This document shows positions 7,911 through 41,943 of a stretch of DNA of 43,802 nucleotides, one piece after another. Each line of letters begins with the position of its first letter. Positions within the stretch are counted from its first letter, which is position 1. The translations under genes were made by a program, and so were the position numbers. The notes beneath the pieces were generated by a model that did not search any database, was not told the DNA's origin, and saw only the letters and a list, made by a program, of their open reading frames with translations. The stretch spans positions 1-43,802 of the forward strand of contig JAJECZ010000212.1 of assembly GCA_022821735.1 (NCBI GenBank), in the 5' to 3' direction. Origin of the DNA: Alphaproteobacteria bacterium (lineage in GTDB: Bacteria > Pseudomonadota > Alphaproteobacteria > Bin95).

Positions 7911-7917
7911 CGTCCCG

Positions 7918-8364: not shown

Positions 8365-9542
8365 GCGGTCCGCTGCGGTCGGCGCATCCGGTGCGCGAGA
8401 AGGCCGGCCAGCAGCAGGCTGCACGCCGAAAGCGCCATCATGAACCAGAACGCGTCGCCGCCGAAGCGCTCGTAGAGCGGCCCCGAGGCCACGAGGGCGA
8501 GCCCCGTGGCCCCGCCCATCGCGATGGACGAATGGAGGCCCTGCGCGGTCGCCGAAATTTCGGGCGCGACATGGCGCTGGAGCCAGGTCATGCCGCCCAG
8601 ATGCGTCGCCGCGAAGGTGAAGCCGTGCAGCATCTGGACGGGCGCGAGCAGCCAGAGGTCGGTGGTGAGCGCCGTGCCCGCCCAGCGCAGCATGGCCGCC
8701 GACGCGCCGAGCGCGATCAGGCCCGCGATCCCGAGCCGGTCCACGACCCGGTTGCCGAGGGCGAAGAGCGCGACTTCCGAGATGACGCCGACCGCCCAGA
8801 GCGGCCCGATGACATCCTTGCCGTGCCCGGCGGCCTCCCAGTGCAGCGTGCCGAACCCGATCAGCACGGCATGGCTCGCCATGTTGCAGGCGATGGCGGC
8901 GGCGCATAGCAGGAAACCGGTATCCGTCATCAGCCGGCCGACCGCATGGCGGGACGCGCGCCGCGTCTCCGGGCGGGCGTCGGGCAGCGCCGCCGTCGCC
9001 GCCGCGACCAGGAGCAGGCCGCCGACCATGGCCGCGACGATGGCCCCGTCGCCGCGTCCGGCCAGCGCCCAGCCGCCGGCCGTGGAGGCCAGGATGAACG
9101 CAACCGAGCCCCAGACGCGCATCCTGCCGTAGTCGAGCCTGCGGGCGCGCGCCGTCAGCAGCGCGATATTGTCGGAGAGCGGCAGGGTCGGCCCGTGGGC
9201 GAGCGCGAACAGCAGCACGAGAAGGAAGACCGGCCAGAAGCTCTCCGCCAGCGGGAAGCAGGCGGCAACCGCCACCGAGGCGACGGCGAAGCGCAGCGCG
9301 TAGCGCCGCCGTTCCCCGCGCCAGTCGGCGTAGCGCATCACCGCGGGGTTGACGGCCACGCGAAGCCACATGCTCGCCGCCATGACCCAGGCGATTTCCG
9401 GCGCGCCCAGGCCCCGGGATTCGAGCCAGAGCGGGAAAAAGGGCTGATAGACGCCGACCATCGCGAAATAGGCGGTATAGAAGAGCGAAATGCGGAGCGA
9501 GGGGCGCGCGGTCTCCGCCAGACGGACCCGGGAGGTGCTCAA
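8361..9542 (-). CDS. MFS transporter (3-phenylpropionate/HcaT-like PPP family)
   Basis: About 393 aa from a TTG at 9542 (LSTSRVRLAETARPSLRISLFYTAYFAMVGVYQPFFPLWLESRGL...), with twelve hydrophobic segments. The longer 529-aa ORF N-terminus is Arg/His-rich and overlaps the divergent gene. Confidence 0.8.
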   Translation of the reverse strand: MSTSRVRLAETARPSLRISLFYTAYFAMVGVYQPFFPLWLESRGLGAPEIAWVMAASMWLRVAVNPAVMRYADWRGERRRYALRFAVASVAVAACFPLAESFWPVFLLVLLFALAHGPTLPLSDNIALLTARARRLDYGRMRVWGSVAFILASTAGGWALAGRGDGAIVAAMVGGLLLVAAATAALPDARPETRRASRHAVGRLMTDTGFLLCAAAIACNMASHAVLIGFGTLHWEAAGHGKDVIGPLWAVGVISEVALFALGNRVVDRLGIAGLIALGASAAMLRWAGTALTTDLWLLAPVQMLHGFTFAATHLGGMTWLQRHVAPEISATAQGLHSSIAMGGATGLALVASGPLYERFGGDAFWFMMALSACSLLLAGLLAHRMRRPQRTA

Positions 9543-16409: not shown

Positions 16410-17573
16410 TCAGTCGCGTCCCTGGTCCTGCGTCCCCGGCAGGCTCGACAAGGCAAGGACCGCCTGCGCCACCTCGAATTGCCGCGATCCCCCAAGCTTG
16501 GCGAATATGTGCTTGAGGTGTGTGCGCACGGTGCTGTACCGGCGGCCGGTTGCCGTTGCGATTTGGCGCAGGGTCAGGCCTTGCGCAAGCATCGCCGCAA
16601 TCTCGGTCTCCGCCGGCGTGAGTCCCAGTATCGCCTTGACGAGATCCGGCTCGATGCGCGCCCGGCTCACCGGATCGGCGACCAGCACGAGGCCGGCCAC
16701 ACTACGGGAGCGATGACCCGCGTCCGCTTTCGACACCGGCTTTACGTGCAGCGCCAACTGGGGCAGCGACGGCTCTCGCTTCACCAGCATCGAGCCGCTC
16801 ACGCCCTGTCCGACAAGGAGAGGCAACGCCCCGCCCAGCAGCTTCTGGAGCCTTGCGTCGTCGTCCGGCCAGGTGGCGCGCAACGACTTGCCCTCGTCGG
16901 ACAGCCCGTCGTTTCGGCGAAGCAGGTCCCGCGCACTGTCGTTGGTCTCCACGATCCGCCCGCGCGGGTCCAACTGGATGACGCCCATGCGGGTGTTGGA
17001 GAGGAGCTCGATGGCCGACGCGCCGAGGGCATCCGCGTCCACGAGTGCGGAGCGGACGCGAACGTACTGGCGCAGGTGGGGAAGAACCCGCGCGACCATG
17101 TCGACTCGCGAAGTGGTCCAGCCGCTCGAGTCAACCGGGTTCGCAATTCCCCACAGGATGCGCGAACCGTCGGGTCCGTCGAGGCGCACGCTCAGGCCGT
17201 TGTCGTACTCGAAACGCGGCGCTGACTCGTTGTAGGCAATCGACGTCCTGCGCTCTTCCTCGCTGAACAGATCGGCGAAGCGATCGATTTTGCCGACCGG
17301 GAGCTGCCTCCATCGCGGGAGACTTTCGTCTTCCGGATAGTAGGTTCGAAAGTACTCTTCGAGCCACGCTCCGCGGTCTTCTCCACGATAGTAGGTTTTT
17401 GCGAAGAATAATCGGATGTTGTCCGCGGGGAACCCGTCCTCGAACGTCAGCAAGTTGCCCCTTGCCCCGCAGGCCTCGTCGATGAGCGCGGCAGCGTGCG
17501 GCCAGCGGGCGTCGTCCAGCATAGCCTCGTTGAGCGTTTCCACAATCCGTTCGAATGCGTCCCGCTCTCCCAT
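16410..17573 (-). CDS. LuxR-family transcriptional regulator
   Basis: C-terminal LuxR HTH (LTPAETEIAAMLAQGLTLRQIATATGRRYSTVRTHLKHIFAKLG). The start is taken at the internal ATG (MGERDAFERIVETLNEAMLDD...), because the extended N-terminus is Arg/Gly junk. Confidence 0.8.
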   Translation of the reverse strand: MGERDAFERIVETLNEAMLDDARWPHAAALIDEACGARGNLLTFEDGFPADNIRLFFAKTYYRGEDRGAWLEEYFRTYYPEDESLPRWRQLPVGKIDRFADLFSEEERRTSIAYNESAPRFEYDNGLSVRLDGPDGSRILWGIANPVDSSGWTTSRVDMVARVLPHLRQYVRVRSALVDADALGASAIELLSNTRMGVIQLDPRGRIVETNDSARDLLRRNDGLSDEGKSLRATWPDDDARLQKLLGGALPLLVGQGVSGSMLVKREPSLPQLALHVKPVSKADAGHRSRSVAGLVLVADPVSRARIEPDLVKAILGLTPAETEIAAMLAQGLTLRQIATATGRRYSTVRTHLKHIFAKLGGSRQFEVAQAVLALSSLPGTQDQGRD

Positions 17574-17732
17574 TTCACGCGCGCGCCATCGATATCGTCG
17601 TCTTGATCCGCCCCCTCCGATTCTGCTCCAATGCTGACCTTGGCGCCTGTACGACACCACGGTGGCGGCGCCACCCGGTGCGGACAGGCAAGGTCCGTGG
17701 ACATGATTCGCGATCCAATGCCATCTGCGTTA

Positions 17733-26077: not shown

Positions 26078-29000
26078 CTAGAAATGGGCTTTGGCGAGAG
26101 CAACAGCATCGAGTCCGATCTGCGCCCCGATGAGCCGTCCCGGGATGTCGTCCGCCGGCGGGTGGATGCCGCCCCATATGCGCGACAGGCTGCACTGGTC
26201 GGCGGCGTCGCGATAGGTCGCCCATTGCAGCACCATGTCCACTGATGGCCCACGCTCGAAGACCAGGAACCCGTTCGCCGGGATCCGGAACTCACTCATG
26301 CCGCCGGGAAAGAACGGGTCGCCGGTAAGCGCCGTCAGCACCTCCGCCGCAGCCCGAGAATAAGTGGAATGACCCGAGACATAGCCCGCGAAGGGCGGGG
26401 TGACGAACGTGGGCCGCTGGTAGGGCCACCAGTGTTCCGCGAGAATCCAGCCGACACCGGCCGCGTCGGTCGCCGGGTCGGCTACGTGGTCGGGCCCGCG
26501 CCAGGCCCGTATCTTGATCTTGCCCGCATGCGCACCGTCCTCGCCCGCGAGAGGGTCGTCCGGGCCGACCAGCTCGATCAGGCCGGCCGTTAACGGGATG
26601 CCGTCGGCGGACCATGAAGGAAGCGCGGGATCGCTGGACTGTCCCTGGTCCGCCATGAACCTGATTGCCGAGATCGGCCGGACATAGTCATACCAACCCT
26701 TGACCCCCCATGAAGCGATGGCGGCGTCGTGCATCGCTCCGCCCAGGGCGAAGTATGTCTTCACGTCCCATTCGAGCGGATCGAGAACGGGCCCCTCCCC
26801 CCCGAGCCGCCTGACCAGCTTCTCGTGGTCGCTGACCGCATTCAGGATCGCGTACCAGTGGCCGGGCGGGGTCTCGGAGTCGGGTCCGTCGGCCCAGAAC
26901 TCGGCGAGCGCGCGCGCATAGTCGCCGCGCGGCACGACCTGGGGCACGTAGGGCTCGCCCGTGGCGGGATTGACCCGGTGACCCGGACCGTGCGGGTTCC
27001 CGTCGTAGAAGGAAGGATAATCCTCGACCCTGCGCGGCAGAGCGGAGATGTTGCCGATGCCCGAAGGCGCGATGTCCATCAGCACGCCGTCCGCAGGCGA
27101 AAGCTCGGACGACCACCGGGCAACCAGCGAGAAGCCCCACCTGTAGTGTCCGGACAGGGAATCTCTCGAGAATGGCGGCGGGCCGGGATCGTGGTAGACG
27201 TACCAGTCGGCCCCGTCCCTGCGATAGACTGAAAGGTCTTTCCCTGACAGCGCGAAGGGCAGGACCCGGCCCCACTCGGGAGTAACGAAGACGGAAATGT
27301 TGTCCGCTGCGAATCCCGCCTGGTCCACGAAGCTCGCCAGATGGAGGGGTTGCCAGCGGTCGGGATCCGCGAGGTCCGGATTGCCCGGACGCGACGGCTT
27401 CAGCTTCCTGTTGACAGGCTCGTAGTGGAGGCTTGCGTAGTTGTTCGCCTCGTTGGAGCCGTCCTCAAACCCCCGGGCGATGTAGAGCGCGCCGATGCAG
27501 GCGCCCAACGCCGCCGCGGGCCCGCTGTTGCCGGCGTCGTATCCAAGCGCTGCCATGAGCGTATCGGCGTTGCGCAGGGTTGCGGACGCCCCCGGCGAAT
27601 GCCGGAAGCGGTGCCGGATGAGGCGCCACGCAGCATGGCTGATGGCTTCCCGTCGCGCGGCAGGGATGCCATCGGCAGACGGAACCGGCGTCGGCTCGCA
27701 GACGGGGTCGGGGTCGCCGAACAGGTAGGGCCTCGCCGTTCCGGAATACGAGGCCCAGGCGTCGTACATGGCGGCGGACAGATGAAACAGGTTTCGGGCA
27801 TGGACCGTCGGCCGCGAGAGATCGTCGCGGATCGCCTGCAACAGTACCTCGATCCAGCGCCGCGCGACCGAGATACCGGGGTCCGACAGTGCCGGCCCCG
27901 GCAGGAAGTTGGCAAAGATCGTCGCGTCGTTCGCCGGCATGACGAATGTCGTGCGGGGCGAGCGATCGTCGGCAAATGTCCCGCCGCCCTCGCTGCTCCA
28001 GTGGCTGAAGCGATAGTTGTCTGCAGGTGCGCCGGCCTCGACGGAGACCGTTTCCCCTTCGGCATGGAGACCGCCTTCAGCGCCGCCCGCAACGCTGAGC
28101 ACGGAGCCGCGGTGCGGCGGCTGACGGATGCTGAGACGACGGTCGGCCAGGATGTTCTCCAGCCGGCTGACCTCACCGCCCGGGCCGGGCCACATCACCT
28201 CCACCGCGGATACCGTTTGCTCCCGGCCGAGGCCGAAGTGCAACGTCGCAGGCCCCTGGGACAGGTAGCCGTCGCCAAACCGAACCTCTTGCGTCTGGCT
28301 GCCTGACGGAGTGTGGACGACCACGCGGGCGCCGATCGCCTCCGGGTTGGCATGCCGGCCGACGAGGTCGAGGGCGAGCCAGTGATTGCCGGTCTCGAAG
28401 GCGTTGCGATAGACGGTCGGAGCGGCGCCCAGATTGGCGATGAAGATGTCGACCCTGCCATCGCCATCGTAGTCCGTGCAGACGACGCCCCGGCCCTGGC
28501 CGGTGTGATCGATACCGAGTTCGCTTCCGCGTTCCGAGAAGGTGCCGTCTCCGTTCGACATGAACAGGCGCGACCTGTCCTCGAGAAATTCGAGCACGCT
28601 CTCCCTGTCTTCAGCTTCGCTGGGATCGTTGTCCACATTCCACCCGTTGGTATGAAAGAGATCGAGGTGGCCGTCATTGTCGAAATCCGCCCAGCAGGCG
28701 CCCCAGCCCCAGCCGCCCTCGCGAACGCCGGCGGCCTCGGTTGCATCCTCGAACCTGCCCGTCCCGTCGATGTTCCGATAGAGGCGGTTCCCGGTGGTTC
28801 CCTGGCCGCCGCTCTTGTCCGGGTCGAAGATGCTGGTCACGAACCAGTCGATATCGCCGTCCCGGTCGTAGTCGCCGGCCGAGGCGCCCATGCCGTTCTC
28901 GTCGGTCAGTACTGTCTTCCCCGTTTCGACGAAGGCGATACCGCGGTCGTTGCGCAGAATCTGGCTCGTCCCGAAGTCGCCGGCCAGCAGCAGATCGGGA

Positions 29001-29770
29001 TCGCCGTCTCCATCGATATCGGCGAATGTCGGCGTGAAGGCGTAGTGGAACGGCGTGCCCGACCTGCGGGTTTCCCGGGCATGCATGAGGATTTCGCTCA
29101 CGTCCCGATAGCGTCCCCTGCCGTCGTTTCGCCAGAGAAGGTGCGAGGGAGGGCGCACCCGGTTCGGAATTCTGCTCCAATGTGAAAAGAACAGGTCCAG
29201 GTCGCCGTCGCTGTCGTAGTCCGCCGCCGCCATGGAGTAGGCCGCCTGGTTGTGCCGGATACCGGAAATGCCGGGCGCCGTCGCGAACCGCCCTGTTCCG
29301 TCGTTGCGGAAGACCTGGACGCCGGTCTGCTGAAGCGACACGAAATCCTTCCGGCCGTCGCGGTCGAGATCGATGAAATACCCCGCCCAATCCATGTCCG
29401 CAGGTTCGATGCCGCGATTGCCGTCACGCTCCACGAAGCCGGTGCCGTCATAGCTGAACAGACGGCCCGTCTTGCCGACTCCATGGGCGACGTAGAGATC
29501 GAGCTTGCCGTCATTGTCGATGTCGGAGAGCGACAGGCCGGCAGCCTCGGGTTGTGCGCCGGCTTCCTCCAACAGTCTCCCCGAGCCGGGCACCACCGGG
29601 TAGTCGAGGCCGATCGCGGCCGAGACCTCCACGAAGCCGCGCCCTCGATATACCGCGTCTTCAGCCGACACCTCGTTCCAACCCGCAACGAACAGAAGGG
29701 CAAGGAAGAAGCGACACGACAGGCGTGCGCCACGGCGCGGACCCGCGTTTCCCTGTCGTGCCGCCTTCAT
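26078..29770 (-). CDS. Secreted multidomain protein: FG-GAP/VCBS repeats plus UnbV/ASPIC, an InlB-B-repeat-like domain, and a C-terminal vanadium-haloperoxidase/PAP2-like domain
   Basis: Signal peptide (..FFLALLFVAGWNEVSA). Many D.D.DGD.D FG-GAP repeats. ASPIC motif (GDGYLSQGPATLHFGLG....V..VEVMWPG). Repeat domain (..YRFSHWSSEGGGTF...TTFVMPANDATIFANF). PAP2/haloperoxidase motifs (YDYVRPISAIRF; YVSGHSTYS; SRIWGGIHPPADD). Confidence 0.85.
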   Translation of the reverse strand: MKAARQGNAGPRRGARLSCRFFLALLFVAGWNEVSAEDAVYRGRGFVEVSAAIGLDYPVVPGSGRLLEEAGAQPEAAGLSLSDIDNDGKLDLYVAHGVGKTGRLFSYDGTGFVERDGNRGIEPADMDWAGYFIDLDRDGRKDFVSLQQTGVQVFRNDGTGRFATAPGISGIRHNQAAYSMAAADYDSDGDLDLFFSHWSRIPNRVRPPSHLLWRNDGRGRYRDVSEILMHARETRRSGTPFHYAFTPTFADIDGDGDPDLLLAGDFGTSQILRNDRGIAFVETGKTVLTDENGMGASAGDYDRDGDIDWFVTSIFDPDKSGGQGTTGNRLYRNIDGTGRFEDATEAAGVREGGWGWGACWADFDNDGHLDLFHTNGWNVDNDPSEAEDRESVLEFLEDRSRLFMSNGDGTFSERGSELGIDHTGQGRGVVCTDYDGDGRVDIFIANLGAAPTVYRNAFETGNHWLALDLVGRHANPEAIGARVVVHTPSGSQTQEVRFGDGYLSQGPATLHFGLGREQTVSAVEVMWPGPGGEVSRLENILADRRLSIRQPPHRGSVLSVAGGAEGGLHAEGETVSVEAGAPADNYRFSHWSSEGGGTFADDRSPRTTFVMPANDATIFANFLPGPALSDPGISVARRWIEVLLQAIRDDLSRPTVHARNLFHLSAAMYDAWASYSGTARPYLFGDPDPVCEPTPVPSADGIPAARREAISHAAWRLIRHRFRHSPGASATLRNADTLMAALGYDAGNSGPAAALGACIGALYIARGFEDGSNEANNYASLHYEPVNRKLKPSRPGNPDLADPDRWQPLHLASFVDQAGFAADNISVFVTPEWGRVLPFALSGKDLSVYRRDGADWYVYHDPGPPPFSRDSLSGHYRWGFSLVARWSSELSPADGVLMDIAPSGIGNISALPRRVEDYPSFYDGNPHGPGHRVNPATGEPYVPQVVPRGDYARALAEFWADGPDSETPPGHWYAILNAVSDHEKLVRRLGGEGPVLDPLEWDVKTYFALGGAMHDAAIASWGVKGWYDYVRPISAIRFMADQGQSSDPALPSWSADGIPLTAGLIELVGPDDPLAGEDGAHAGKIKIRAWRGPDHVADPATDAAGVGWILAEHWWPYQRPTFVTPPFAGYVSGHSTYSRAAAEVLTALTGDPFFPGGMSEFRIPANGFLVFERGPSVDMVLQWATYRDAADQCSLSRIWGGIHPPADDIPGRLIGAQIGLDAVALAKAHF

Positions 29771-30588: not shown

Positions 30589-31173
30589 ATGAAGACACCC
30601 ATCGCATTTCGAACGGTAATCGCCGCTTTGTCGGTCATGTTTTTCACGGCTGCTGCATCGGAGGCCTTGGCAGCATGCGGATCGAGCCAGCGGATGAGCC
30701 ACCGAGATTCCCGCTGCCTCGAGGCGTCGTGGGACAACAATTACTGGCCGCACACGACCACGTATGAGGTAAGAAGCGTTTGTGACCGTTGGGGCAAGGT
30801 TGTCGCGAAAATAGACCTCAAGAGCGCAGCAGACCACACTCTGCATCTGAACAACAGTGATTGGCGACGTGCCGAAGGGTCGTTTCGGGTAAGATGGATT
30901 TACTGCTGCAAGGACATAAGCGACCTCTGCAACACATCGGAAATGAAGACAAATGAGAGTTGTCGCGACGGCTTCGAAGACCGCGATGAAGTCGACGACT
31001 GTACTCTTGACGACGGGACTTCCGGAGCGCGGATCAGGGGCGACCATTGCGTATATAACGCAAGTTGCCTTGACGATGCGTCGCAACCGAACCAGACGTC
31101 GCTCTCCATCCACCGAGCGGACCTGGAGTTCCTGAAAAACTGCAACGGCGTCCTGAAAAGGGATTCCTGCTGA
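30589..31173 (+). CDS. Cysteine-rich secreted or lipo-protein, paralog A (194 aa, 12 Cys)
   Basis: Signal peptide MKTPIAFRTVIAALSVMFFTAAASEALAAC; ends ...NCNGVLKRDSC. GC content is visibly lower than in its surroundings. No family recognised. Confidence 0.8.
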   Translation: MKTPIAFRTVIAALSVMFFTAAASEALAACGSSQRMSHRDSRCLEASWDNNYWPHTTTYEVRSVCDRWGKVVAKIDLKSAADHTLHLNNSDWRRAEGSFRVRWIYCCKDISDLCNTSEMKTNESCRDGFEDRDEVDDCTLDDGTSGARIRGDHCVYNASCLDDASQPNQTSLSIHRADLEFLKNCNGVLKRDSC

Positions 31174-31691
31174 TCCTGCCGGCCGAAGGAGGGGGCCTCG
31201 CTGAGCCGTGATGGAATGTTCGCCGATCTGGCGGCCCCGTTTCTCGCGGGCGCGGCGTCCGGCGCCGCCGGGTGCCGCCCCAGGGTACAGTATGCGGTCG
31301 AGATGCTCTCGTGCATGGCGCGGTGATGATCTGACATGTGCTCCGTGCGGATGCCGTAACGGTTGGACCCGGTCAGGCGGCTATGGACAGCGGTCCGTTC
31401 GCCATTGCGGGACAATGGGAGTTCGATCCCCCGTTCGCCGCGCCCGGAGCGTAGCGCCAACGTCTTGCCGGAGAAGTCCCACATGCCGCAGAGCGCCGGG
31501 GCATAGTCGAATCGGATCTGCAAAGCCCCGCGCCGGTCCCCGAGACGAGCCTTGAGGCAGGCGCAGAAACTGGATCTCTAGCCGTAAGCTCTTCTGCCCT
31601 GCGCGAGAACCCGGTCGCGATATACCACCCGGAGTTGGCGGGGCGTCGGCCGGGCGCGGCGCCGCTTCCGAACCCGAATGAACGAGAAAGA

Positions 31692-31715
31692 ATCTACCCC
31701 AACTGGGGGGCGGCA
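31692..31715 (-). repeat. IS-end-like repeat copy
   Basis: atctaccccaactggggggcggca. It lies about 260 nt upstream of Cys-rich gene B. Confidence 0.6.
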
Positions 31716-31972
31716 GTAATCGCCCGAACTCGTAGACTTTCGACGAAAACCAGGTTCCGTGCGAGGTTCATACAGGCCATGCCGCATTGCCACGCCGAAG
31801 GAATGCCGAGCCGGCATCCCGCGATATTGTCCGGGCCGCGGCCGTCAGGCCAGTCCGACATGCAAAATGCGCCGCCTTCGTTGTTGCCCTGGCACGCCAG
31901 GGCGCTCCCTCGCCGTGCAGTTCACCCATCCAACAAGGTCTCCGGACAGCAAGAAGGAAAGGGTATCGGACG

Positions 31973-32557
31973 ATGAACACGCGCATCGCATTTCGAACGG
32001 TAATCGCCGTTCTGTCGGTCATGTTCCTCACGGCTGCGGCATCGGACGCCTGGGCGGCGTGCGGATCGAGCCAGCGGATGAGCCACCGCGATTCCTTCTG
32101 TCTCCAGGCGTCGTGGGACAACAACAGCTGGCCGCACACGACGTCGTATGAGATGAGAAACATCTGCTCTTCCTGGGGCAAGGTCGTCGCGAAAGTCGAC
32201 AGAAAAGACGATTCGGACCTCACATTGCACCTGGTCAACGACTCCACGAGAACCGGCAGCGGGTGGTACAGGATCAGGTGGATTTACTGTTGCAAGGACA
32301 TAAGCGATCTCTGCAACAGGTCGGACATGCAGACAAACGCGAGCTGTCGCGAAGGCTTCGAGGACAACAACGAACTCGACGACTGCACGCTCGACGCGGG
32401 GTCCGAAGGAGCGAGGATTCAGGGCGAGCAGTGCGTATACAGCGCAAGCTGCCTCGACAATGCGTCGCAACCGAACGAGACGACGTTCATCGTCTTCCGA
32501 CCGGACGTGGACGATTTGAAGAATTGCAACGGCGTCTTGAAACAGGATTCCTGCTGA
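31973..32557 (+). CDS. Cysteine-rich secreted or lipo-protein, paralog B (194 aa, 12 Cys)
   Basis: MNTRIAFRTVIAVLSVMFLTAAASDAWAAC...NCNGVLKQDSC. It is colinear with paralog A and all 12 Cys positions are conserved. Confidence 0.8.
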   Translation: MNTRIAFRTVIAVLSVMFLTAAASDAWAACGSSQRMSHRDSFCLQASWDNNSWPHTTSYEMRNICSSWGKVVAKVDRKDDSDLTLHLVNDSTRTGSGWYRIRWIYCCKDISDLCNRSDMQTNASCREGFEDNNELDDCTLDAGSEGARIQGEQCVYSASCLDNASQPNETTFIVFRPDVDDLKNCNGVLKQDSC

Positions 32558-33121: not shown

Positions 33122-33829
33122 TCAGGAAAGGGCGGCAAGCGCTGCCTCCAGAGTCTCGCGGCAGTCCATGACCGACCGAAAGCCGCTCATGTCGACAACC
33201 GACCGGCATGAGGGCTGCAAGGCAGCGATAACGAACCTGCCGCCCGATTGCTGACATGTCTTCGCGCTGACGAGGAGGCCGCGCAGTCCGGCGCTGTTGA
33301 CATAGCTCATCCGGCTGCAATCCAGCGCCACACGGGCGTTGCCGGCCGCGACGACGGTGGAAACCCGGGCCTCCAGCAGCGGAGCGCCGCTGCCATCCAG
33401 CCGGCCGCTCACCGACAGGACGACCGCAACCTCCTCGCGGCGCTCCTCGATCGTGGTCTCCCCGCCGTCTTCCGGCATCGACTTAACGCCGCCCTCCCCG
33501 GAAGCGGCAAGGGCTGCCTCGACGGTCTCGTGGTAGTCGAGAACCGAGAGCAGACCACTCACGTTCACGACCTCCCGGCACTCCGGCCTGAGCGCAGCAA
33601 TGATGAAGGTGCCGCCCTCGTTCCCGCACGATTTAGCGCCGACCAGGAGCGCGCGCAGACCGGCACTGCTGATATAGGATATTCGCCGGCCGTCCAGAAT
33701 CACACGGTTGTCGCCCCGCCTCACGATAGCGGAAACCCGGGCTTCCAGAACCTGCGCGCCGGCCGCGTTCAGCGGCCCCTCCGGGGACACGACGACTTTC
33801 CGTTCCAGGCTCCGCTCCAGGATTCTCAT
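33122..33829 (-). CDS. Tandem-STAS domain protein (two anti-sigma-factor-antagonist-like domains)
   Basis: Two internal repeats each carry a SpoIIAA-like core: ..VILDGRRISYISSAGLRALLVGAK...FIIAAL.P.CREVVNVSGL.. and ..VALDCSRMSYVNSAGLRGLLVSAK...FVIAALQPSCRSVVDMSGF... The ATG at 33844 is an alternative start. Confidence 0.8.
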   Translation of the reverse strand: MRILERSLERKVVVSPEGPLNAAGAQVLEARVSAIVRRGDNRVILDGRRISYISSAGLRALLVGAKSCGNEGGTFIIAALRPECREVVNVSGLLSVLDYHETVEAALAASGEGGVKSMPEDGGETTIEERREEVAVVLSVSGRLDGSGAPLLEARVSTVVAAGNARVALDCSRMSYVNSAGLRGLLVSAKTCQQSGGRFVIAALQPSCRSVVDMSGFRSVMDCRETLEAALAALS

Positions 33830-33840
33830 GGCGCCGCCTT

Positions 33841-34605
33841 TCATCGGTCACGCCGATTGCCGTCCGCACGCGCCGCGGCGACGAGTTCCTTCATCTGGAT
33901 GTCGTCGATTGCGCCCGGGACCAGGGAATCCCCGATCACGAATGCCGGCGTGCCCGAAATCCCCAGCGCCCCGGCGAGCCGCCTCGTCTCCTCGAGATAG
34001 GCTGCGGTCGCAGGATCGCCCATGTCGCGGCGGAGCCGCTCCACGTCGAGCCCGACCGCGGCGGCGAGCCCGAAAATCCCCTCTTCGGTCAGCTTCTCCC
34101 CGGTACCCATCATGGCGACATGGAAATCGTGATAGAGCCCTTGCCGGTCAGCCGCCATTGCGGCAACTGCGGCCAAGTCCGAGACCGGACCCAGGATGGG
34201 AAACTCCTTCCAGACCACGCGGACCCGGTCGTCGGATTCCAGCAACGCCATCACGGCCGGAAACGCCCGCTTGCAGTAGCTGCATCTGTAGTCGAAGAAC
34301 TCGACCACGGTGACGTCGCCCTCGGGGTTGCCGGAGACCGGCGACAGGGGATGCGCCCGCAGGGCCCGGTCGTTTTCCGCGATCGCCGCCCGGGCGCGGC
34401 TCAGGCGCTCCTCCTCGCGCCTCTGGCGAAGAATCTGCATCGCCTCTTCCAGGACCTCGGGGTTCTCCAGCAGATACTCCCTGACGATCTCTCCGACCGC
34501 CTTCCTGTCGAGATTCGGGTCCGGCGCCGACTGCGCCCGGCTCTCCGGGGCCGGCATCATGATGGAAACGGCGATCACGGCCGCCAGCATCGTCATCATT
34601 CGCAT
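33841..34605 (-). CDS. DsbA-family periplasmic thiol:disulfide oxidoreductase
   Basis: Signal peptide, thioredoxin-fold active site (VVEFFDYRCSYCKR) and the DsbA-like cis-Pro region (ISGTPAFVIG). Confidence 0.9.
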   Translation of the reverse strand: MRMMTMLAAVIAVSIMMPAPESRAQSAPDPNLDRKAVGEIVREYLLENPEVLEEAMQILRQRREEERLSRARAAIAENDRALRAHPLSPVSGNPEGDVTVVEFFDYRCSYCKRAFPAVMALLESDDRVRVVWKEFPILGPVSDLAAVAAMAADRQGLYHDFHVAMMGTGEKLTEEGIFGLAAAVGLDVERLRRDMGDPATAAYLEETRRLAGALGISGTPAFVIGDSLVPGAIDDIQMKELVAAARADGNRRDR

Positions 34606-34785
34606 GGGTCATGTTCCTTGTCTGTGTATGCGTGCGGAGGACTCATCGATCACCCGTAAACCACGGCGCGGACGATCGTCTGTCGAGTTGATTTGCGGGC
34701 CGGATTGGCGCAATTTTCGCTGGACGAAATCCCCGGCCAATGGCGTGGCGACCATATACGGACGGAAAGATCGGAGGGCGCCGGC

Positions 34786-35202
34786 GTGACCTCTTGCAAG
34801 CTCTCGGGAGAAGACGCCGTCGCCTTTGACGCTCCCCTTCTGCTCTATGACGGCGAATGCCCGTTCTGCAGCTTCTACGTCGCGAAATCGGAATTCGAAA
34901 CGCGCATCGGCAAGCCCCTGCGTCTCGTCGACGGCAGGCAGGCCCCCGACCTCGTCGAGCGCATGCGGCGCGACGGGTACGACCTCGAACAGGGCATGAT
35001 CCTCGCCGTCGAGGGACGGCTCTATCACGGCGCAGCGGCGATGACCGCACTCGCGACCATGAGCACCGGCGCCGGCCGCTTCAACAGGGTCATGCGCCGG
35101 GTCGCGTCGAGCCGTGCGCGGGTCCGCCGGCTCTATCCCTGGCTGCGCAGGCTGCGGCGCGCAGCTCTGCTCGCAAAGGGCGCGCCCCGCTTCCGGCGCT
35201 GA
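34786..35202 (+). CDS. DCC-family (DUF393) thiol-disulfide oxidoreductase
   Basis: DxxCxxC motif near the N-terminus (LLLYDGECPFCSFYV). The GTG at 34786, preceded by GGAGG, gives the usual ~138-aa size. The ORF-track start at 34693 is less likely. Confidence 0.8.
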   Translation: MTSCKLSGEDAVAFDAPLLLYDGECPFCSFYVAKSEFETRIGKPLRLVDGRQAPDLVERMRRDGYDLEQGMILAVEGRLYHGAAAMTALATMSTGAGRFNRVMRRVASSRARVRRLYPWLRRLRRAALLAKGAPRFRR

Positions 35203-35216
35203 GCCCGCGAACCGCA

Positions 35217-36782
35217 TCATTCCCGATCCTCGCAGGCGACGCCGCTCCGGGAGCCGCCCGAAACAGCCTCGAACCCGGGCGACCGTTCCCGTTTTCCAAA
35301 TGCGTCCAGCATGGCGCCGAAGCAGGCGGACGTCATCGGCGGATACCAGGTAGGGACCAGCCCTTGCGCCGCCTGTACCCGCTCGGGACGGAGCAGCCAG
35401 GGCTCCTCGCCGAACCAGTTCATGCCGTCGATCGCGGCGAGGTCGAAGGTCGGATCCACCAGGCGCTGAAACGGCTTGCCGTTCACGCTCTTCGAGATGT
35501 CGGCGTAAATGCGCACATCATCGATGCCCTGCCGGGCGAAATCCGCCTTCAGCCAATGCACATAGTGCATCAGCACCTCGGGCTTGGTGAACACCATGAA
35601 CTCCTGAAGCGGATCGAGATGGGATCGCGGTTCGACGATCCATGCCTCGCCGTTCGGTGCGGCCACCAGGAAGCTCCCGCCGCCGTCGTTGATGTAGAGC
35701 ATCATGCGCCAGGAGAATTTCTGGCCCTCTTCGGTCCACCCGACATAGCCTTCGAACAGGCTGTCCCGGAAGGGCAGCCAGATTTGGACTAGGGCGTAGA
35801 GGACGAGGGCAGCCAACGCAGCCGGATGCAACGGACGGAAGGCGGCCCGATCGTCTGCGCTTCCCGCCGGCGCGCCGCCGATGAACGCGACCGCGCGGCC
35901 GATCCGGTCCGGCATTCGTGGTCGCACCACCCGCAGCCTCTTCAGCACGAGGCCGGTCCTGCGCGCCAGCGCCCCGGGCCAGTCGGGGGAGAACAGGATC
36001 GTCGTGGCGGCGATCGTCATCCACGGGAAGACGCCGATAGGGAACAGATGCGCGTTGGCGACGTGGAAGGCGCAGTAGACCAGGAATATCCAGAGCCTCG
36101 TCTTCGACCACAGCAGCAACGGCGCCCCCACCACGTGGAGCAGGATGACCAGCACGGGCGCCGCGAGCGTCACCCAGTGCAGCTCGAACAGGACGGAGAA
36201 GGGCGACCAGGTCCGCTCCAGCATCCAGGTCCTGAGCGGCTCGCCCCGCAGCCAGTCGATCTCGAATTTCGCCAGTCCCGCGAAAATCAGCACAACCTCG
36301 ACCTGGAACTGCAGGATGAGGAGGTTCCAGCGCGGTACCTCTCGCGTGCCCCCGATGCGGCCGAGCCTGCGGTCCACCGACCAGCAGCGGTGCGCGTCGG
36401 TACAGCCGAGCAGCAGCCCGAACAGCGCGATCATGTAGAAATGGTTGAGATAGAGCAGCTGATCGAGAAGGAAGAAGTATATGAAAATCGCGTTGAAGCC
36501 CCAGATGGCGAGACGATAGAAGGCGCCGAAGGCGACGAGCACGCAGCACACCCCGCACAGCGCCCACAGCCAGTGCAGCCAGGGTGCCGGCAAAGGCGGC
36601 ACCTCCAGTCCGAAATAGGGAAACAGGATTTCGCGCTCGACATAGAACCGCGTCAGCCATCCGCCTCTCAGCAGATAGACAACGTCGTGCAGCATCACGA
36701 GGCCGAAGGCGATCCGGAAGACGGCAAGCGACTGTCCGGCCACGGGCCGGACGGCCAGCCTGCGAATGTCTGTCAGCATCAT
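35217..36782 (-). CDS. HTTM-domain membrane protein (vitamin-K-dependent gamma-glutamyl carboxylase-like)
   Basis: N-terminal HTTM signature (..GQSLAVFRIAFGLVMLHDVVYLLRGGWLTRFYVE..ILFPYFGLE...YRLAIWGFNAIFIYFFLLDQLLYLNHFYM..L..LL). It has multiple TM segments and a ~200-aa C-terminal domain. It starts 54 nt downstream of the exporter-2 permease on the same strand. Confidence 0.85.
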   Translation of the reverse strand: MMLTDIRRLAVRPVAGQSLAVFRIAFGLVMLHDVVYLLRGGWLTRFYVEREILFPYFGLEVPPLPAPWLHWLWALCGVCCVLVAFGAFYRLAIWGFNAIFIYFFLLDQLLYLNHFYMIALFGLLLGCTDAHRCWSVDRRLGRIGGTREVPRWNLLILQFQVEVVLIFAGLAKFEIDWLRGEPLRTWMLERTWSPFSVLFELHWVTLAAPVLVILLHVVGAPLLLWSKTRLWIFLVYCAFHVANAHLFPIGVFPWMTIAATTILFSPDWPGALARRTGLVLKRLRVVRPRMPDRIGRAVAFIGGAPAGSADDRAAFRPLHPAALAALVLYALVQIWLPFRDSLFEGYVGWTEEGQKFSWRMMLYINDGGGSFLVAAPNGEAWIVEPRSHLDPLQEFMVFTKPEVLMHYVHWLKADFARQGIDDVRIYADISKSVNGKPFQRLVDPTFDLAAIDGMNWFGEEPWLLRPERVQAAQGLVPTWYPPMTSACFGAMLDAFGKRERSPGFEAVSGGSRSGVACEDRE

Positions 36783-36836: not shown

Positions 36837-38051
36837 CTATTCGCCCTGCAGCGCGATGATGGGATCCAGGCGCGAAGCCTGGTAGGCGGGCTGGAAGCCG
36901 AAGAAGAGGCCGATCGCGGACGAGACGCCGACGCCGGCAGCGATGGATGTCGGCGAGACGAAGAAATCCCACTCGAAGAAGAACCGGCACAGGCCGTAAG
37001 TCGCTCCTGTTCCGATGAGAATGCCGACCACCCCGCCGCCCATGGTGAGGATCAGGGCCTCGACCAGGAACTGGCTCTGGATGTCGCCGGGGCTCGCGCC
37101 GAGGGCCAGCCGAACGCCGATCTCGCGGCGCCGCTCGGCCACCGAAATCAGCATGACGTTCATCACGCCGAGCCCGCCCACGATCAGGCTGATGCTGCCG
37201 ACCGCGCCGAGCAGCAGGGTCATCACGCCCAGCTGTGCCTCCATGCGCTCGATCAGCTGCTCGGCGCTGGTGACCTGGACGGCGAGGCCCCGGGACCGTT
37301 CGGCGAAGAAGGTCTGGATGTCCGCGGCGGCGTCCGCGTAGTGAACGCCGGGCGCAACCCGGGCGACGATCAGTTCGATCTGCGCGTCCGGACTGAGGCG
37401 CCGGACCGTGGTAACGGGAACGAATACGGATTTGTTCGCGTCCACGGAAAACGGCAGCGCATAGCTCTCGGGCGTGTCGGCCAGTACGCCGATCACGGTG
37501 TAGAGCCAGTCTCCGGCCCCCACGATCTCGCCCACGACCTCGCTTGCGCCGAGCCGGCGCATTTTCTGCGCCACCTCGGCGCCCACCACCGCGAAATAGC
37601 GCCCCCTGTCCAGGTCCGAGACGAAGCGCCCCTCGGCGACCTGCAGCCGGTTTACGCGCGCAAACGACTCCGAAACGCCCTGTACGGAGCCGGAACCGGC
37701 GTCCTTGCCGGCATACAGGAAGGAACCGCTTGACCGTATCCTGGGCGCCGCCTCGGCAATGGTCGAAAGCCTGTCGGCAACGTCGAGCGCATCCTCCAGA
37801 CCGATGGCCGCGTCTTGCGCGGCGGCCGGCTGGTCCTCCGACTTGAGGACCGAAAGTATATCGGTCCCGACAGCCTCGAACTTCTTGCGCGCCTCGGCGG
37901 TGGCGATTTCCCCGGTCGAGATCATCGCGATCACCGACGCGATGCCCATCGCGATGCCGACCAGCCCCAGGATCGTGCGGAGCCTTGCACGCAGGAGGCT
38001 GCGCGCGGCCTCGCGCAGGCTGTCGGTCAATGCGGCTCCCCCGCGCGCCAT
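36837..38051 (-). CDS. ABC transporter permease, MacB/FtsX type (exporter 2)
   Basis: Colinear with the 23964 permease (MARGGAALTDSLREAARSLLRARLRTILG...PAYQASRLDPIIALQGE). The ATG at 38051 is preferred over the longer ORF. Confidence 0.9.
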   Translation of the reverse strand: MARGGAALTDSLREAARSLLRARLRTILGLVGIAMGIASVIAMISTGEIATAEARKKFEAVGTDILSVLKSEDQPAAAQDAAIGLEDALDVADRLSTIAEAAPRIRSSGSFLYAGKDAGSGSVQGVSESFARVNRLQVAEGRFVSDLDRGRYFAVVGAEVAQKMRRLGASEVVGEIVGAGDWLYTVIGVLADTPESYALPFSVDANKSVFVPVTTVRRLSPDAQIELIVARVAPGVHYADAAADIQTFFAERSRGLAVQVTSAEQLIERMEAQLGVMTLLLGAVGSISLIVGGLGVMNVMLISVAERRREIGVRLALGASPGDIQSQFLVEALILTMGGGVVGILIGTGATYGLCRFFFEWDFFVSPTSIAAGVGVSSAIGLFFGFQPAYQASRLDPIIALQGE

Positions 38052-38062
38052 AACGCCGCCGT

Positions 38063-38743
<681 letters not shown>

Positions 38744-38758
38744 TGCGGGCGCCAGCGC

Positions 38759-40531
38759 TCAGTATTCCGGCACCGCGATTTCGTCGCCGGCCTCCAGGCC
38801 TGCAACGATCTCGACGGAACTCATCGTGGTCAGACCGATTTCGACTTCGCGCTCGACCGTTTCGCCGGTGCCCGGATCGACAATCTGCACCCAGTGCGAC
38901 CGCCCGCGACGGTCCACCGCCGCCAGCGGCACCGTGAGCGCCTCCTCGTTGCGGTAGACGACGATCTCCAGCCTGCTGGACATCCCGGCGCGCAGCCGCC
39001 GCTGTTGTGCGTCGTCGAGCGGATCGAGCGTCACCCTGACGGCGAAACGGGACGCTCTCCCCGTCTGTTGCACCGGCTGCGACGAGACCTGGGTCACGGT
39101 CCCCTTCAGCATCAGGTCGCGAAAGGCGTTCCCGGTTACCGATACGGCCTGCCCGACGGCGATCCGGACCACGTCGACTTCGTCCACCTTCGCGGTTGCC
39201 GCCATCCGGGTGAAGTCTCCGATGGTGAGCAGATGGTCGCCCTTACGTACGGCCCGGCCTGCCGCCAGGGCCGGGCCGCGCGACGAGGACGCCATGACCA
39301 CCCCCGACAGCGGTGCATGGATACGCCCCTTGTCGAGGTCTTCCGCCAGCTCCCGCAATGTTTCCTCGGCAGTGCTGAGTTCCAGCGCCGCCTTGTCCTG
39401 CGCCTCCTTGCCGCCCCTGGCCCGGGCCGCCTCGAAGTCTTCGCGGGCTGCCTCGAAATCCAGAAGCTGGCTCTGGTACCGCCGTTCCGCATCCTCGCGC
39501 TCGGAGGTGGCGACCAGGCCCTGTTCCAGCAGGAACGCGGTCCGCTTCAGCTGCCTCTCCTGATCCTCCAGTTCCATGCGCGCACGCGCGAACGACCGCC
39601 TGGCAGCCGCCATCTCGGAGCCGGTCTCCCAGTTTGTGACGGTTTCGAACGCATCCGCCTTTTCGATGTGGGCCACTTGCGCCTCGCGGTGCTTTTGCAC
39701 CGCTTCGGAGGTATCCAGTTCCATCAGGAGACCGCCCTCCTGCACCGCCTGGCCGTGCTCGAAATGCACGGCTTCGATGCGGCTCTCGATCGGACTCGTC
39801 ACCGCAACCGTCCGCCATGGCGCCAGCTTGCCCGACAGCGTGATCGTCTCGCTTACCGGCTGCGGCCCCACGGTCACCGTGTAATGGCCTTCTTCGAGCC
39901 CGGCCCTGGCAGGGGAGACAACGGACTGATCGAGCGAGCCCTCAAAGAGATCGAGCGGCTGCCACACATAGGCGCCGGCGCCCAGGAACGTCCCGATCAC
40001 AACCACCGTCGCGACGATCCGCGCCACCTGGACCTGTCTCAGGGTCGCCGCCAGGGTCCGGTTGCGGTCCTCGATCTGCCGGTACGCCGACTGAAGCTCG
40101 GCGTGCTGCGCCTCCACTGCCTTCGCCATCCGCAGTTCGGTCTCGCGCAGCTCCTTGAGCTCGGTGATGTCGCTGAAGACGGCGATCAGCGCCATCGGCG
40201 CCGACTCGCCGTCCGCGCCCGACCGAAGATAGGATGTCGCTACCGAGAGCGACCGGGCTTCCCCGCCTCTCTCCAGCGCCACCACCCGCCGGCCGCCGTC
40301 GCTCTCCCCGGTCACGGCGTCGAGGATCAGCCCGCTCAGCTCTTCGAAGCCGTCGCGGTCGATGAAGAGTTGGGCGAAGGACCCGCCCACGGCCTCGTCC
40401 GGCGCGAGCCCGAGGATGCGTCCCGCCGCCTCGTTGAACACCGAAACGGTGCCGCCGCGCTCGACCACGATCACGCCGTCGGACAGGTTCTCCAGAACGC
40501 TCCCGCGTATATCGGCGAACCCGCCCGTCAT
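38759..40531 (-). CDS. Membrane-fusion protein with an N-terminal cytoplasmic PAS domain (exporter 2)
   Basis: The ATG at 40531 overlaps the OMF stop (ATGA). MTGGFADIRGSVLENLSDGVIVVERGGTVSVFNEAAGRILGL...IAVFSDITELKELRETELRM, then a TM segment (IVATVVVIGTFLGAGAYVW) and the adaptor domains. The 945-aa ORF extension overlaps the OMF gene and is rejected. Confidence 0.85.
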   Translation of the reverse strand: MTGGFADIRGSVLENLSDGVIVVERGGTVSVFNEAAGRILGLAPDEAVGGSFAQLFIDRDGFEELSGLILDAVTGESDGGRRVVALERGGEARSLSVATSYLRSGADGESAPMALIAVFSDITELKELRETELRMAKAVEAQHAELQSAYRQIEDRNRTLAATLRQVQVARIVATVVVIGTFLGAGAYVWQPLDLFEGSLDQSVVSPARAGLEEGHYTVTVGPQPVSETITLSGKLAPWRTVAVTSPIESRIEAVHFEHGQAVQEGGLLMELDTSEAVQKHREAQVAHIEKADAFETVTNWETGSEMAAARRSFARARMELEDQERQLKRTAFLLEQGLVATSEREDAERRYQSQLLDFEAAREDFEAARARGGKEAQDKAALELSTAEETLRELAEDLDKGRIHAPLSGVVMASSSRGPALAAGRAVRKGDHLLTIGDFTRMAATAKVDEVDVVRIAVGQAVSVTGNAFRDLMLKGTVTQVSSQPVQQTGRASRFAVRVTLDPLDDAQQRRLRAGMSSRLEIVVYRNEEALTVPLAAVDRRGRSHWVQIVDPGTGETVEREVEIGLTTMSSVEIVAGLEAGDEIAVPEY

Positions 40532-41943
40532 TGCCCGACCTGCTCGACCGTTATGCCCCAGGTCTCCAGGGTCGTGCCAAGGGTCCGATCCAGCGCCAGG
40601 AGCGCGTTGTCGTAGCCGGCGAGAGCGTCGACCTCGGCGTTCTGCGCACCGACAAGGTCCTCCTCGAACCGGCTTAGCTGGAAGGTGGACGAGAGACCCT
40701 GCTGCAGCTTGCTCCGCTCGATCGCGAGCTTCTCCTCGGTAAGTTCGCGCGCCCTGCGGGCCAGCTCGATCTGCCGCTGCCCCACCTCTACGTCGTACAC
40801 GGCCTGGCGCACGGCGATGCCCATCGCCTGTCGCAGTTCCTTCAGGCCCCGCTCCGCGCGCCGAACGTCCGCCCGGGCGCTCCTGAGCCCGAGTTCGGGC
40901 GAGCGGTCCCACAGCGGAACGGTCAGCCGCAGGCCGGCGGAATAGTCGATCCCCACATCGCCGCCGGTGCCCCGCGACATGTCCGCATCCAGGGACAGGT
41001 CCCAGAGCTTGCTGTTCTCGGCAACCGTCAGCCCGATCCCGGCGATCTCCCTGACCAGAAGCGCCTGCGCATAGCCGGGCGAGTGCCTGAGCGCCGTCTC
41101 GATGGCCTGCTCGACCGAAAGCGGCCGGCGCGGAACGGACGGCGCCTCGACCGGACGGATCACCGTTGAACTGTCGATGTCGAGAATGTCGATCAGGGAG
41201 AAATTGGCCGAGGTCACGCCGTTCCGGGTCTGCACCAGGCCGAGTTCCCTTCCGGCCACATCCGCCTCGCTCTGGAGCAGTTCGCGGGCCGCCATCTGGC
41301 CCGCCTCGACGAGCTTGCGGTTGATGTCCAGCTGCTCCCGCGCGCGGGCCAGAGAGGCCTCGCCGATCTCGAGCTGGCGCCGCGACTGCACCAGGCCACG
41401 CCAGGCCTGGATCGTGGAAATCACGACGCCCGCGACCGCCTGGCGGAAGGCCAGCACACCGATTCGTTCGCCGATCCGCGCCACCCGCAGCGGCGCCGTA
41501 TCGATGTCCGTCCCGAAGCCGCGCAGCAACGGCTGCGAGAAACCCAGCGAGACCGTGCCCGAAGTGTCCTCCCCGCCGGCAAGCGGCTTCGACCACCGCA
41601 AACTGATCTGCCCCCCGGTGGGAATCCGCAGACCGGTCCCGATGGAAGCATCTGCCGTCATCTGCCCGTCCCTTTGGGCACGCACCGTCGGCGCGATGCT
41701 CCCAATGGGGCTGTAGCGGTCCTCGGCCACCTCGAGCGAGAATTTCTGGATGGCGCGGGAGAGACGGGCGTCGAGCAGGCCCCGGTTGTTCTCCAGCGCC
41801 AGCGCGATCGCGTCATCCAGCGTCAGCGCGAGGCGGCCGGCAGGTACCCCCACCTGGCCCAGTCCCGGCGAAGGCCGCAACACCGTCATCGCCGCTGCCG
41901 GAAGCAGCAGAGCGACTATGGCAACTATGGAAATCCGGGTCAT
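40528..41943 (-). CDS. TolC-family outer-membrane efflux protein (exporter 2)
   Basis: 471 aa with a signal peptide (MTRISIVAIVALLLPAAAMT). It is colinear with the 19754 OMF, at roughly half identity by eye. Confidence 0.9.
   Translation of the reverse strand: MTRISIVAIVALLLPAAAMTVLRPSPGLGQVGVPAGRLALTLDDAIALALENNRGLLDARLSRAIQKFSLEVAEDRYSPIGSIAPTVRAQRDGQMTADASIGTGLRIPTGGQISLRWSKPLAGGEDTSGTVSLGFSQPLLRGFGTDIDTAPLRVARIGERIGVLAFRQAVAGVVISTIQAWRGLVQSRRQLEIGEASLARAREQLDINRKLVEAGQMAARELLQSEADVAGRELGLVQTRNGVTSANFSLIDILDIDSSTVIRPVEAPSVPRRPLSVEQAIETALRHSPGYAQALLVREIAGIGLTVAENSKLWDLSLDADMSRGTGGDVGIDYSAGLRLTVPLWDRSPELGLRSARADVRRAERGLKELRQAMGIAVRQAVYDVEVGQRQIELARRARELTEEKLAIERSKLQQGLSSTFQLSRFEEDLVGAQNAEVDALAGYDNALLALDRTLGTTLETWGITVEQVGQ

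Follow-up and report, generated by a model that had tools for sequence, protein, structure and literature searches.

The stretch of DNA analyzed here, a contig of 43,802 nucleotides from an alphaproteobacterium that we refer to as the window, carries, at positions 33122 to 35202, a gene for a DsbA-family protein, a gene for a protein made of two STAS domains (the tandem STAS protein) and a DCC (DUF393) gene, the last of which faces the HTTM gene that closes the array of the second of the window's pumps. A sequence-only reading had placed all four genes correctly and had grouped the redox and regulatory ones into a single mini-cluster. This grouping does not hold. The genes form two separate accessory modules, DsbA-STAS and DCC-HTTM, and the DCC gene belongs with HTTM rather than with DsbA or STAS. 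The explanation that we favor as a whole, with a probability of about 55%, is that the DsbA-family protein is a ScsC-type enzyme dedicated to a cassette for the export of cysteine-rich proteins, that the tandem STAS protein is a phospho-switch and that the DCC protein is the partner of the HTTM protein.

Homologue searches for the DsbA and STAS proteins covered 17 genomes of the genus, the window's own and 16 others (genomes, contigs and loci are designated by G, C and L numbers). Full-length tandem-STAS genes were found in 11 of the 16 other genomes, often several in each, and the 20 tandem-STAS loci of the genus that were compared with the window's proteins fall into two groups. In the pump-linked group, the genes follow the order cargo, outer-membrane factor (OMF), PAS-adaptor, ABC ATPase, MacB-type permease, ScsC-type DsbA and tandem STAS. 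This order is seen at 13 loci, where the DsbA gene directly precedes the tandem-STAS gene at the cassette tail (the window, L020-L023, L027, L028, L033-L036, L038 and L050). STAS is the tail gene of the array in L020, L021, L022, L027, L033, L034, L036 and L038, L035 has the exact layout of the window, L023 and L028 are decayed versions, and the metagenome contig L050 carries the canonical array. Five further metagenome loci bring the number of loci with a STAS gene in or beside a pump cassette to 18, with STAS as the tail gene in most. Two of these (L051 and L052) have no intact DsbA gene in front of the STAS gene, and in the most divergent family members (L055-L057, 46–49% identical) STAS comes last in the pump array, DsbA being absent; the gene just before it in L056 and L057 encodes a long-form cargo that shares the N-terminal Cys motif. 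Type-1 PAS-adaptor genes and pump-linked STAS genes also occur in equal numbers (4:4 in G015, 3:3 in G012, 2:2 in G009 and 1:1 in G006). As STAS is kept in cassettes that have no DsbA gene, the conserved linkage is that of STAS to the pump cassette, and STAS adjoins DsbA as a result of the tail position that the two genes share in this genus. The pairing of STAS with DsbA that had been read from the window is thus real at 13 loci but secondary, while a genomic tie of STAS to the PAS-adaptor/ABC/MacB cassette is seen at all 18.

The second group consists of stand-alone copies that lie between folE and two P450 genes and are mutually 84–88% identical (70–72% in two genomes). The window's own genome carries a tandem-STAS gene beside folE, on contig C277, which is 57% identical to the window copy. 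A branch with 100% support divides the pump-linked from the stand-alone forms, and branches are long among the former and short among the latter. Domain trees place the internal duplication before the origin of the tandem-STAS family, and rooting by this duplication favored neither form as the older. Domain 1 of L051 and L052 groups with domain 2, which suggests homogenization of the domains in these two proteins. At L039 (7609-8772, +, on contig C1 of G012), an open reading frame (ORF) of 387 amino acids joins an adaptor PAS N-terminus in frame to one STAS domain (72% identical to adaptor residues 6-183 and 63% to STAS residues 140-239). This ORF was considered as Rosetta-stone evidence and was given no weight, being a singleton with no cassette remnants nearby and probably a deletion product.

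The DsbA-family protein is of the ScsC type. It matches the Pfam models DSBA (85 bits) and ScsC_N (PF18312, 55.2 bits against a cut-off of 25.8), and has a hydrophobic N-terminus with a signal peptide. In a sequence search of the PDB, the closest solved structures were 3gyk (a 27-kDa protein), 7rgv (CcScsC) and 4xvw (PmScsC), with residues 31-248 aligned to 7rgv by phmmer at E = 7e-44. The ScsC proteins of Caulobacter and Proteus are trimeric disulfide isomerases (PMC8900818, PMC5524982). Signal peptide, ScsC_N region, C(G/S)(F/Y)C motif and GTP cis-Pro loop are intact in all 10 aligned pump-linked copies. Within the genus, ScsC-like proteins form two clades. The core clade, 41–46% identical to the window copy, is represented exactly once in each of the 17 genomes; the own core copy, on contig C81, has a CGFC motif and, by eye, adjoins a MoeB/ThiF-like gene. 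The window's clade (57–64% identical) occurs in one to four copies in only six other genomes (G006, G009, G012, G014, G015 and G016) and is almost confined to pump neighborhoods. One pump-clade gene, in L040 (10529-11302, contig C1 of G016), is solitary, neither a pump nor a STAS gene being found within 10 kb; a weak ParB_N-like match nearby suggests that it may be carried by a mobile element.

Synteny and phylogeny together thus give good support to the view that the window DsbA is a paralog set apart from the housekeeping copy and dedicated to the pumps for Cys-rich proteins. It is not the organism's only, housekeeping DsbA, as there is a core copy, and the own genome also encodes, away from the cassette, DsbB, a full DsbD/ScsB-type protein (DsbD_N, DsbD_TM and Trx, 670 amino acids) and VKOR. 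With DsbB and the DsbD/ScsB-type protein, both oxidising and reducing membrane partners are available. Of the "dedicated periplasmic oxidase" proposed for this gene, the first word therefore stands, but the last is not established, since the architecture, with its trimerization domain, is that of a disulfide isomerase; judged by sequence, the enzyme may work in either direction. The window protein shares with CcScsC (7RGV) and PmScsC (4XVW) the signal peptide, the N-terminal trimerization region, the DsbA-like thioredoxin domain, the CXXC motif and the cis-Pro. It differs from them in being an extra paralog beside a core ScsC-like gene, inside a Cys-rich export cassette, with no adjacent scsB or scsD and no copper context, and it is known here from sequence.

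The ScsC-type and STAS genes could also be redundant duplicates of housekeeping genes that hitch-hike on a mobile cassette and have no cassette-specific role. Each of the two does have a core paralog in its own genome, and integrases and transposases surround the cassettes, which are frequently rearranged. The STAS gene is, by its substitution rates, under purifying but relaxed selection, with dN/dS of 0.35–0.48 versus 0.16–0.26 for the ATPase, and the closest pair has a dN/dS near 1, on few changes. However, the genes are intact in at least 13 cassettes at 50–65% identity, dN/dS is 0.3–0.5 over longer distances, STAS persists where DsbA was lost or never present, and the active-site motifs and both STAS serines are conserved. 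We therefore regard hitch-hiking as improbable. As a side observation on the same genes, the STAS genes of L020 and L021, two cassettes of G015, differ by a dS of only 0.06, whereas the remaining genes of these cassettes differ by 0.18–0.45, which suggests recent gene conversion between them.

The tandem STAS protein matches Pfam STAS (104.6 bits) and the NCBIfam anti-sigma-factor antagonist model TIGR00377 (117.9 bits), each in two stretches, and also the STAS_2 model (83 bits). The two-domain description is thereby confirmed, as is the presence of the motif serine in each domain (S55 in SSAGL and S179 in NSAGL). Both serines are found in all aligned copies and, among 64 homologues, conservation is complete for one and at least 90% for the other; they lie at the start of helix 2, where the phospho-acceptor of STAS domains is located, and we take both to align with Ser58 of SpoIIAA. 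Neither the STAS nor the DCC protein contains a transmembrane-like segment. The AlphaFold2 model (pLDDT 90.6, pTM 0.52) has two confident STAS folds and a disordered linker, and its low pTM indicates a flexible connection with no fixed packing between the domains. Foldseek matched the model best to SpoIIAA/RsbV-type proteins (E = 2e-8; TM-score 0.85–0.91 against 4hyl, 1thn and 1vc1), and all strong matches were single-domain antagonists of the SpoIIAA, RsbV or TM1442 type. With 235 amino acids and two domains, the protein is not itself one of these single-domain antagonists, which have about 110–120 amino acids.

The close family has few members: when 5.8 billion proteins were searched by word index from the alignment, about 75 full-length ones were found at E <= 1e-20, and an exhaustive profile search gave only six full-length representatives at 50% identity. 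Members that carry a name are called just "STAS domain-containing protein" and come from uncultured Alphaproteobacteria (one is labelled Gammaproteobacteria). The exhaustive search also turned up more remote proteins from elsewhere with two or three STAS domains, and in four of ten long ones tested the array is joined to an RsbW-type kinase, a PP2C phosphatase or a Hanks kinase, which favors a role in phospho-switching for multi-STAS arrays generally. A scan of the genomic context of distant tandem-STAS proteins returned only weak, single-domain matches from actinomycetes. No paper that we found describes a single-chain tandem STAS protein or links a STAS protein to a MacB-type exporter, and single-chain tandem forms are not mentioned in the review of STAS-only proteins.

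The fold comparison bears directly on a rival in which the protein is an MlaB-like, non-phosphorylated subunit that stabilizes or tunes the ABC ATPase dimer, with one STAS domain per nucleotide-binding domain. Two STAS domains would suit a dimeric ATPase, the STAS_2 match points the same way, and at 18 loci the gene lies within an ABC-exporter array. MlaB and MlaF provide a precedent for a STAS-only regulator of an ABC ATPase (PMC7367683). In the fold search, however, MlaB chains appear only at ranks 42 and 50 (E = 5e-4 and 9e-4). The cassette ATPase, whose best matches are the MacB, LolD and DevA models, is a minimal LolD/MacB-type domain of 226–232 amino acids and presumably lacks the C-terminal extension by which MlaF clasps MlaB. 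Moreover, the ATPase is the slowest-evolving part of the cassette, while STAS is the fastest, and a conserved stand-alone STAS paralog lies away from any ABC gene. We consider this reading doubtful. MlaB of MlaFEDB and the window protein are both small cytoplasmic STAS proteins encoded with an ABC transporter, whose ATPase MlaB regulates (PMC7367683). The window protein differs in being tandem and structurally closer to the SpoIIAA type, its ATPase is of the minimal LolD/MacB type, and its pump works as an exporter whose adaptor bears a PAS domain.

A further peculiarity of the family is its cysteines, which occur in each domain in the motifs LDC, AKxC and PxC. Conservation across the 64 homologues is complete or reaches at least 90% at five positions (C68, C84, C171, C192 and C208), and these cysteines are absent from the two single-domain STAS proteins of the own genome and from the distant tandem-STAS proteins. 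They might make the protein a sensor of cytoplasmic redox state or of a metal, linked to folding and export in the periplasm, and its usual neighbor is of the ScsC type, of which a characterized member binds Cu(I) (PMC8900818). The sixth motif position, the LDC of domain 1, is however Gly in the window and in L021-L023. This counts against a sensor, as does the fact that no STAS protein is, to our knowledge, a Cys-based sensor, and we hold the idea to be unlikely.

We prefer to read the tandem STAS protein as a phospho-switch, and candidate partners for it exist in the own genome, which encodes one RsbW-like Ser kinase (C348:5220-5654), one HAMP-PP2C protein (C517) and two single-domain STAS proteins, all of them orphans. 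The sequence-only reading had seen no partner kinase or phosphatase, which is correct for the window and the cassettes, although candidates lie elsewhere in the genome. Several observations should nonetheless be considered as weighing against a switch that acts on the pump. Neither the window nor any of the 18 pump-linked loci contains a kinase or phosphatase gene. The RsbW-like kinase, being present in all 17 genomes, does not follow the distribution of the tandem STAS gene; neither it nor the HAMP-PP2C protein is linked to or correlated with the cassette. STAS is the fastest-evolving cytoplasmic part of the cassette, with a mean identity of 60%; its possible partners, the PAS region and the ATPase, have 75% and 82%. 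Distance correlations over 10 cassettes between STAS and the PAS region, the periplasmic part of the adaptor, the ATPase, the permease and DsbA (rho 0.45–0.64) favor none of these as a partner in this mirror-tree test, because linked genes share their history. Lastly, the stand-alone paralog beside folE and the P450 genes has no partner in view, one of the window's pumps (operon 1) has no adjacent STAS gene, and the pump-clade ScsC gene of L040 likewise has none.

The two Cys-rich signal-peptide proteins of the window (30589-32557) are presumed to be the cargo of the pumps and the substrates of the ScsC-type enzyme. Long Cys-rich signal-peptide proteins (357–373 amino acids) are encoded at L056:7747-8820 and at L057:548-1654 and 7774-8895; they share with the window's 194-amino-acid cargo an N-terminal motif, C-x-S-x-R-[VM]-[TS]-H-x-x-[SA]-x-C-[LI]-x-A-[ST]-W-[DN]-N, so the cargo family has a long form. 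That STAS directly follows the cargo gene in L056 and L057, and evolves faster than the other cytoplasmic genes of the cassette, might be expected of an immunity or antidote protein for a toxic cargo. The cargo is, however, Sec-exported and folded in the periplasm while STAS is cytoplasmic, and a stand-alone ortholog, 84–88% conserved, occurs in genomes that have no cassettes. We also know of no toxicity of the cargo, and this reading is the most improbable of those considered.

Taken together, we rank the roles of the tandem STAS protein in the order phospho-switch on the cassette, MlaB-like ATPase subunit, Cys-based sensor, hitch-hiking gene and immunity protein. The export cassette is a mobile, repeatedly duplicated unit of Cys-rich secreted protein, OMF, PAS-adaptor, ABC ATPase and MacB-type permease. 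In the mechanism that we propose, its 12-Cys cargo, once exported by Sec, would be handled in the periplasm by the ScsC-type enzyme, whose trimerization domain suggests a disulfide isomerase or oxidase, and then expelled by the MacB/TolC-like pump. In the cytoplasm, the orphan RsbW-like kinase and the HAMP-PP2C protein would set the phosphorylation state of the tandem STAS protein, the free form of which may act on cassette expression or, at the cytoplasmic face of the pump, on the PAS domain or the ATPase. A more specific version, in which STAS is the cytoplasmic gate of the MacB-type tripartite exporter, its domains docking on the adaptor PAS domain and/or the ATPase dimer and being released or engaged by phosphorylation of the two serines, is tentative and should be given well below even odds.

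Known systems resemble parts of this scheme. The heat-stable enterotoxin STb of Escherichia coli, a disulfide-rich protein, acquires its fold in the periplasm through DsbA and leaves the cell by MacAB-TolC. The analogy lies in Dsb folding followed by MacB-type export; the folding enzyme of the window is, however, private to the cassette and of the ScsC type, the adaptor carries a PAS domain, and the array includes a STAS gene. With SpoIIAA, RsbV, BtrV and RbaV, the window STAS protein shares the fold (TM-scores of up to 0.91 to single-domain structures) and the Ser at the start of helix 2 and, like BtrV of Bordetella in type III secretion, it is encoded inside a secretion locus. Unlike SpoIIAA, RsbV, BtrV and RbaV of Rhodobacter, it has two STAS domains per chain, extra conserved cysteines and no kinase or phosphatase in the locus, and the machine is a MacB-type tripartite ABC pump rather than the type III system of BtrV.

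Sigma factors, biofilm genes, the Mla lipid transporter and a type III secretion system are all known targets of STAS-only switch proteins. The synteny over 18 loci ties a small tandem-STAS family to an export cassette with a private ScsC-type folding enzyme, and if the gate were real, secretion of disulfide-rich proteins would be under partner-switch control, described for the first time for a tripartite ABC pump. The data thus raise the questions of how tripartite ABC protein exporters are regulated from the cytoplasm, of whether bacteria have disulfide isomerases dedicated to particular secreted cargo and of what role the orphan DCC/DUF393 family plays beside HTTM enzymes. As the hosts are uncultured marine alphaproteobacteria, the value lies in biology and tools rather than in medicine.

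The DCC gene forms a module with HTTM. Its product matches the DCC1-like model PF04134 (43.7 bits against a cut-off of 27.8) and has the motif DGECPFC. Translation probably starts at GTG 34786, behind GGAGG, in agreement with a database call of 138 amino acids, the ORF start at 34693 probably being too early. The gene ends at 35202 and the stop codon of HTTM occupies 35217-35219, so that the 15 or so nucleotides previously estimated between the two convergent genes are exactly 14. DCC and HTTM homologues are found in the same five of the 17 genomes, and the pair is intact, adjacent and convergent at six places (the window, L044, L021, L035, L038 and L041), with a gap of 14–16 nucleotides where measured (L021, L035 and L038). 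Both genes are decayed in L023, and L028 has an intact DCC gene with HTTM on another contig. Seven DCC copies share an invariant CPFC motif and basic C-terminal helix. The pair lies after MacB in the window and L035, after STAS in L021 and L038 and away from any pump in L041 and L044, and this variable position marks it as a module of its own. L044 is in the own genome (C374:1710-2959) and holds a second convergent pair (DCC 74% and HTTM 64–66% identical, the HTTM gene being cut by the contig end), which adjoins an ASPIC-like fragment.

The DCC-HTTM pairing is real and fixed in these genomes and, as the sequence-only reading supposed, it is already on record: an HTTM-DCC1-like fusion protein has been reported from Melghirimyces thermohalophilus (bioRxiv 10.64898/2026.08.19.745780). 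The same two domains are functionally joined there, which supports a partnership of DCC with HTTM; in the window they are separate, convergent genes and the HTTM protein has a VKGC lumenal domain in addition. DCC homologues of about 50% identity in other genera do not lie beside HTTM; the pairing is therefore lineage-specific, with the known fusion in addition, and not universal for DCC proteins. A phylum-wide HTTM scan matched 8 of 301 genomes, mostly by weak partial matches. VKOR was considered as an HTTM-linked partner and set aside as uninformative, since it is core in 16 of the 17 genomes. In our overall explanation, the HTTM/carboxylase-like membrane enzyme would depend on the DCC protein as its cytoplasmic CxxC partner, probably for its redox cycle.

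Table 1 Coordinates of the module genes, their motifs and the neighboring pump and cargo genes in the window.
Feature	Position	Strand	Description	Basis
Tandem-STAS gene	33122-33829	-	235 amino acids; alternative ATG start 33844	Two STAS stretches in Pfam and in NCBIfam
STAS domain 1	~33500-33829	-	Candidate phospho-Ser S55, codon 33665-33667 (SSAGL)	
Disordered STAS linker	Residues 113-122	-	Between domains 1 and 2	
STAS domain 2	~33125-33454	-	Candidate phospho-Ser S179, codon 33293-33295 (NSAGL)	
ScsC-type DsbA-family thiol-disulfide oxidoreductase gene	33841-34605	-	254 amino acids	Pfam DSBA and ScsC_N
ScsC-type DsbA motifs	CSYC 34273-34284		ScsC_N residues 33-66; CSYC residues 108-111; GTP cis-Pro loop residue 218	
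Divergent intergenic region	34606-34785	.	180 nucleotides; separates DsbA and DCC starts	
DCC1-like (DUF393) thioredoxin-fold gene	34786-35202	+	138 amino acids; CPFC 34858-34869 (residues 25-28); basic C-terminal helix	Pfam PF04134
DCC/HTTM stop-codon spacer	35203-35216	.	14 nucleotides; convergent genes	
HTTM + VKGC-lumenal-domain protein gene	35217-36782	-	521 amino acids	Pfam HTTM 229.8 bits, VKGC_lumenal_dom 118.4 bits
Pump 2	36837-41943	-		Pfam, NCBIfam
Pump-2 MacB-type permease	36837-38123	-		
Pump-2 ABC ATPase	38063-38743	-		
Pump-2 PAS-HlyD adaptor	38759 to ~40560	-		Extent from homology to other adaptors
Pump-2 OMF	40528-41943	-		
Two Cys-rich signal-peptide genes	30589-31173, ~31970-32557	+		ORFs; homologues head cassettes in relatives

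The coordinates of the features are collected in Table 1. The STAS start lies 11 nucleotides from the DsbA stop or, with the alternative ATG, overlaps it by 4 nucleotides as ATGA, a spacing from which the two genes would be co-transcribed. The region between the DsbA and DCC starts presumably holds the promoter or promoters for DsbA-STAS and DCC. A promoter and terminator scan of 32.6–37 kb gave no sigma-70-like site and terminator-like matches at chance level, and comparison of the DsbA-DCC intergenic region with that of L035 showed conservation limited to the starts and the Shine-Dalgarno sequence, with no operator found. In pump 2, the 945-amino-acid ORF of the adaptor (38759-41596, -) overlaps the OMF ORF, and homology to adaptors begins near 40558; judging from this, the ORF is probably over-extended and the real adaptor has about 600 amino acids.

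Other genes recur around the cassettes. A second, distant pair of PAS-adaptor and MacB genes (37–46% identical) lies within a few kb of three STAS cassettes (L021:2246-5256, L035:2539-5727 and L036:10861-14785), with no ABC ATPase gene detected beside these pairs. Upstream of pump operon 1, the window encodes a 416-amino-acid protein with a C-terminal LuxR/GerE helix-turn-helix (16410-17660, -), homologues of which (46–53% identical) lie beside cassettes or HTTM/DCC modules in L028, L036, L041 and L051; this protein is a candidate transcription regulator of the cassette. An FG-GAP/ASPIC and VCPO-like protein is a recurrent accessory (window 26078-29770, -; L052:4808-8632; L045; L041). In L052 its gene lies on the same strand between the MacB and tandem-STAS genes, in L045 it follows a PAS-adaptor/MacB pair, and in L041 a fragment of it is found upstream of HTTM.

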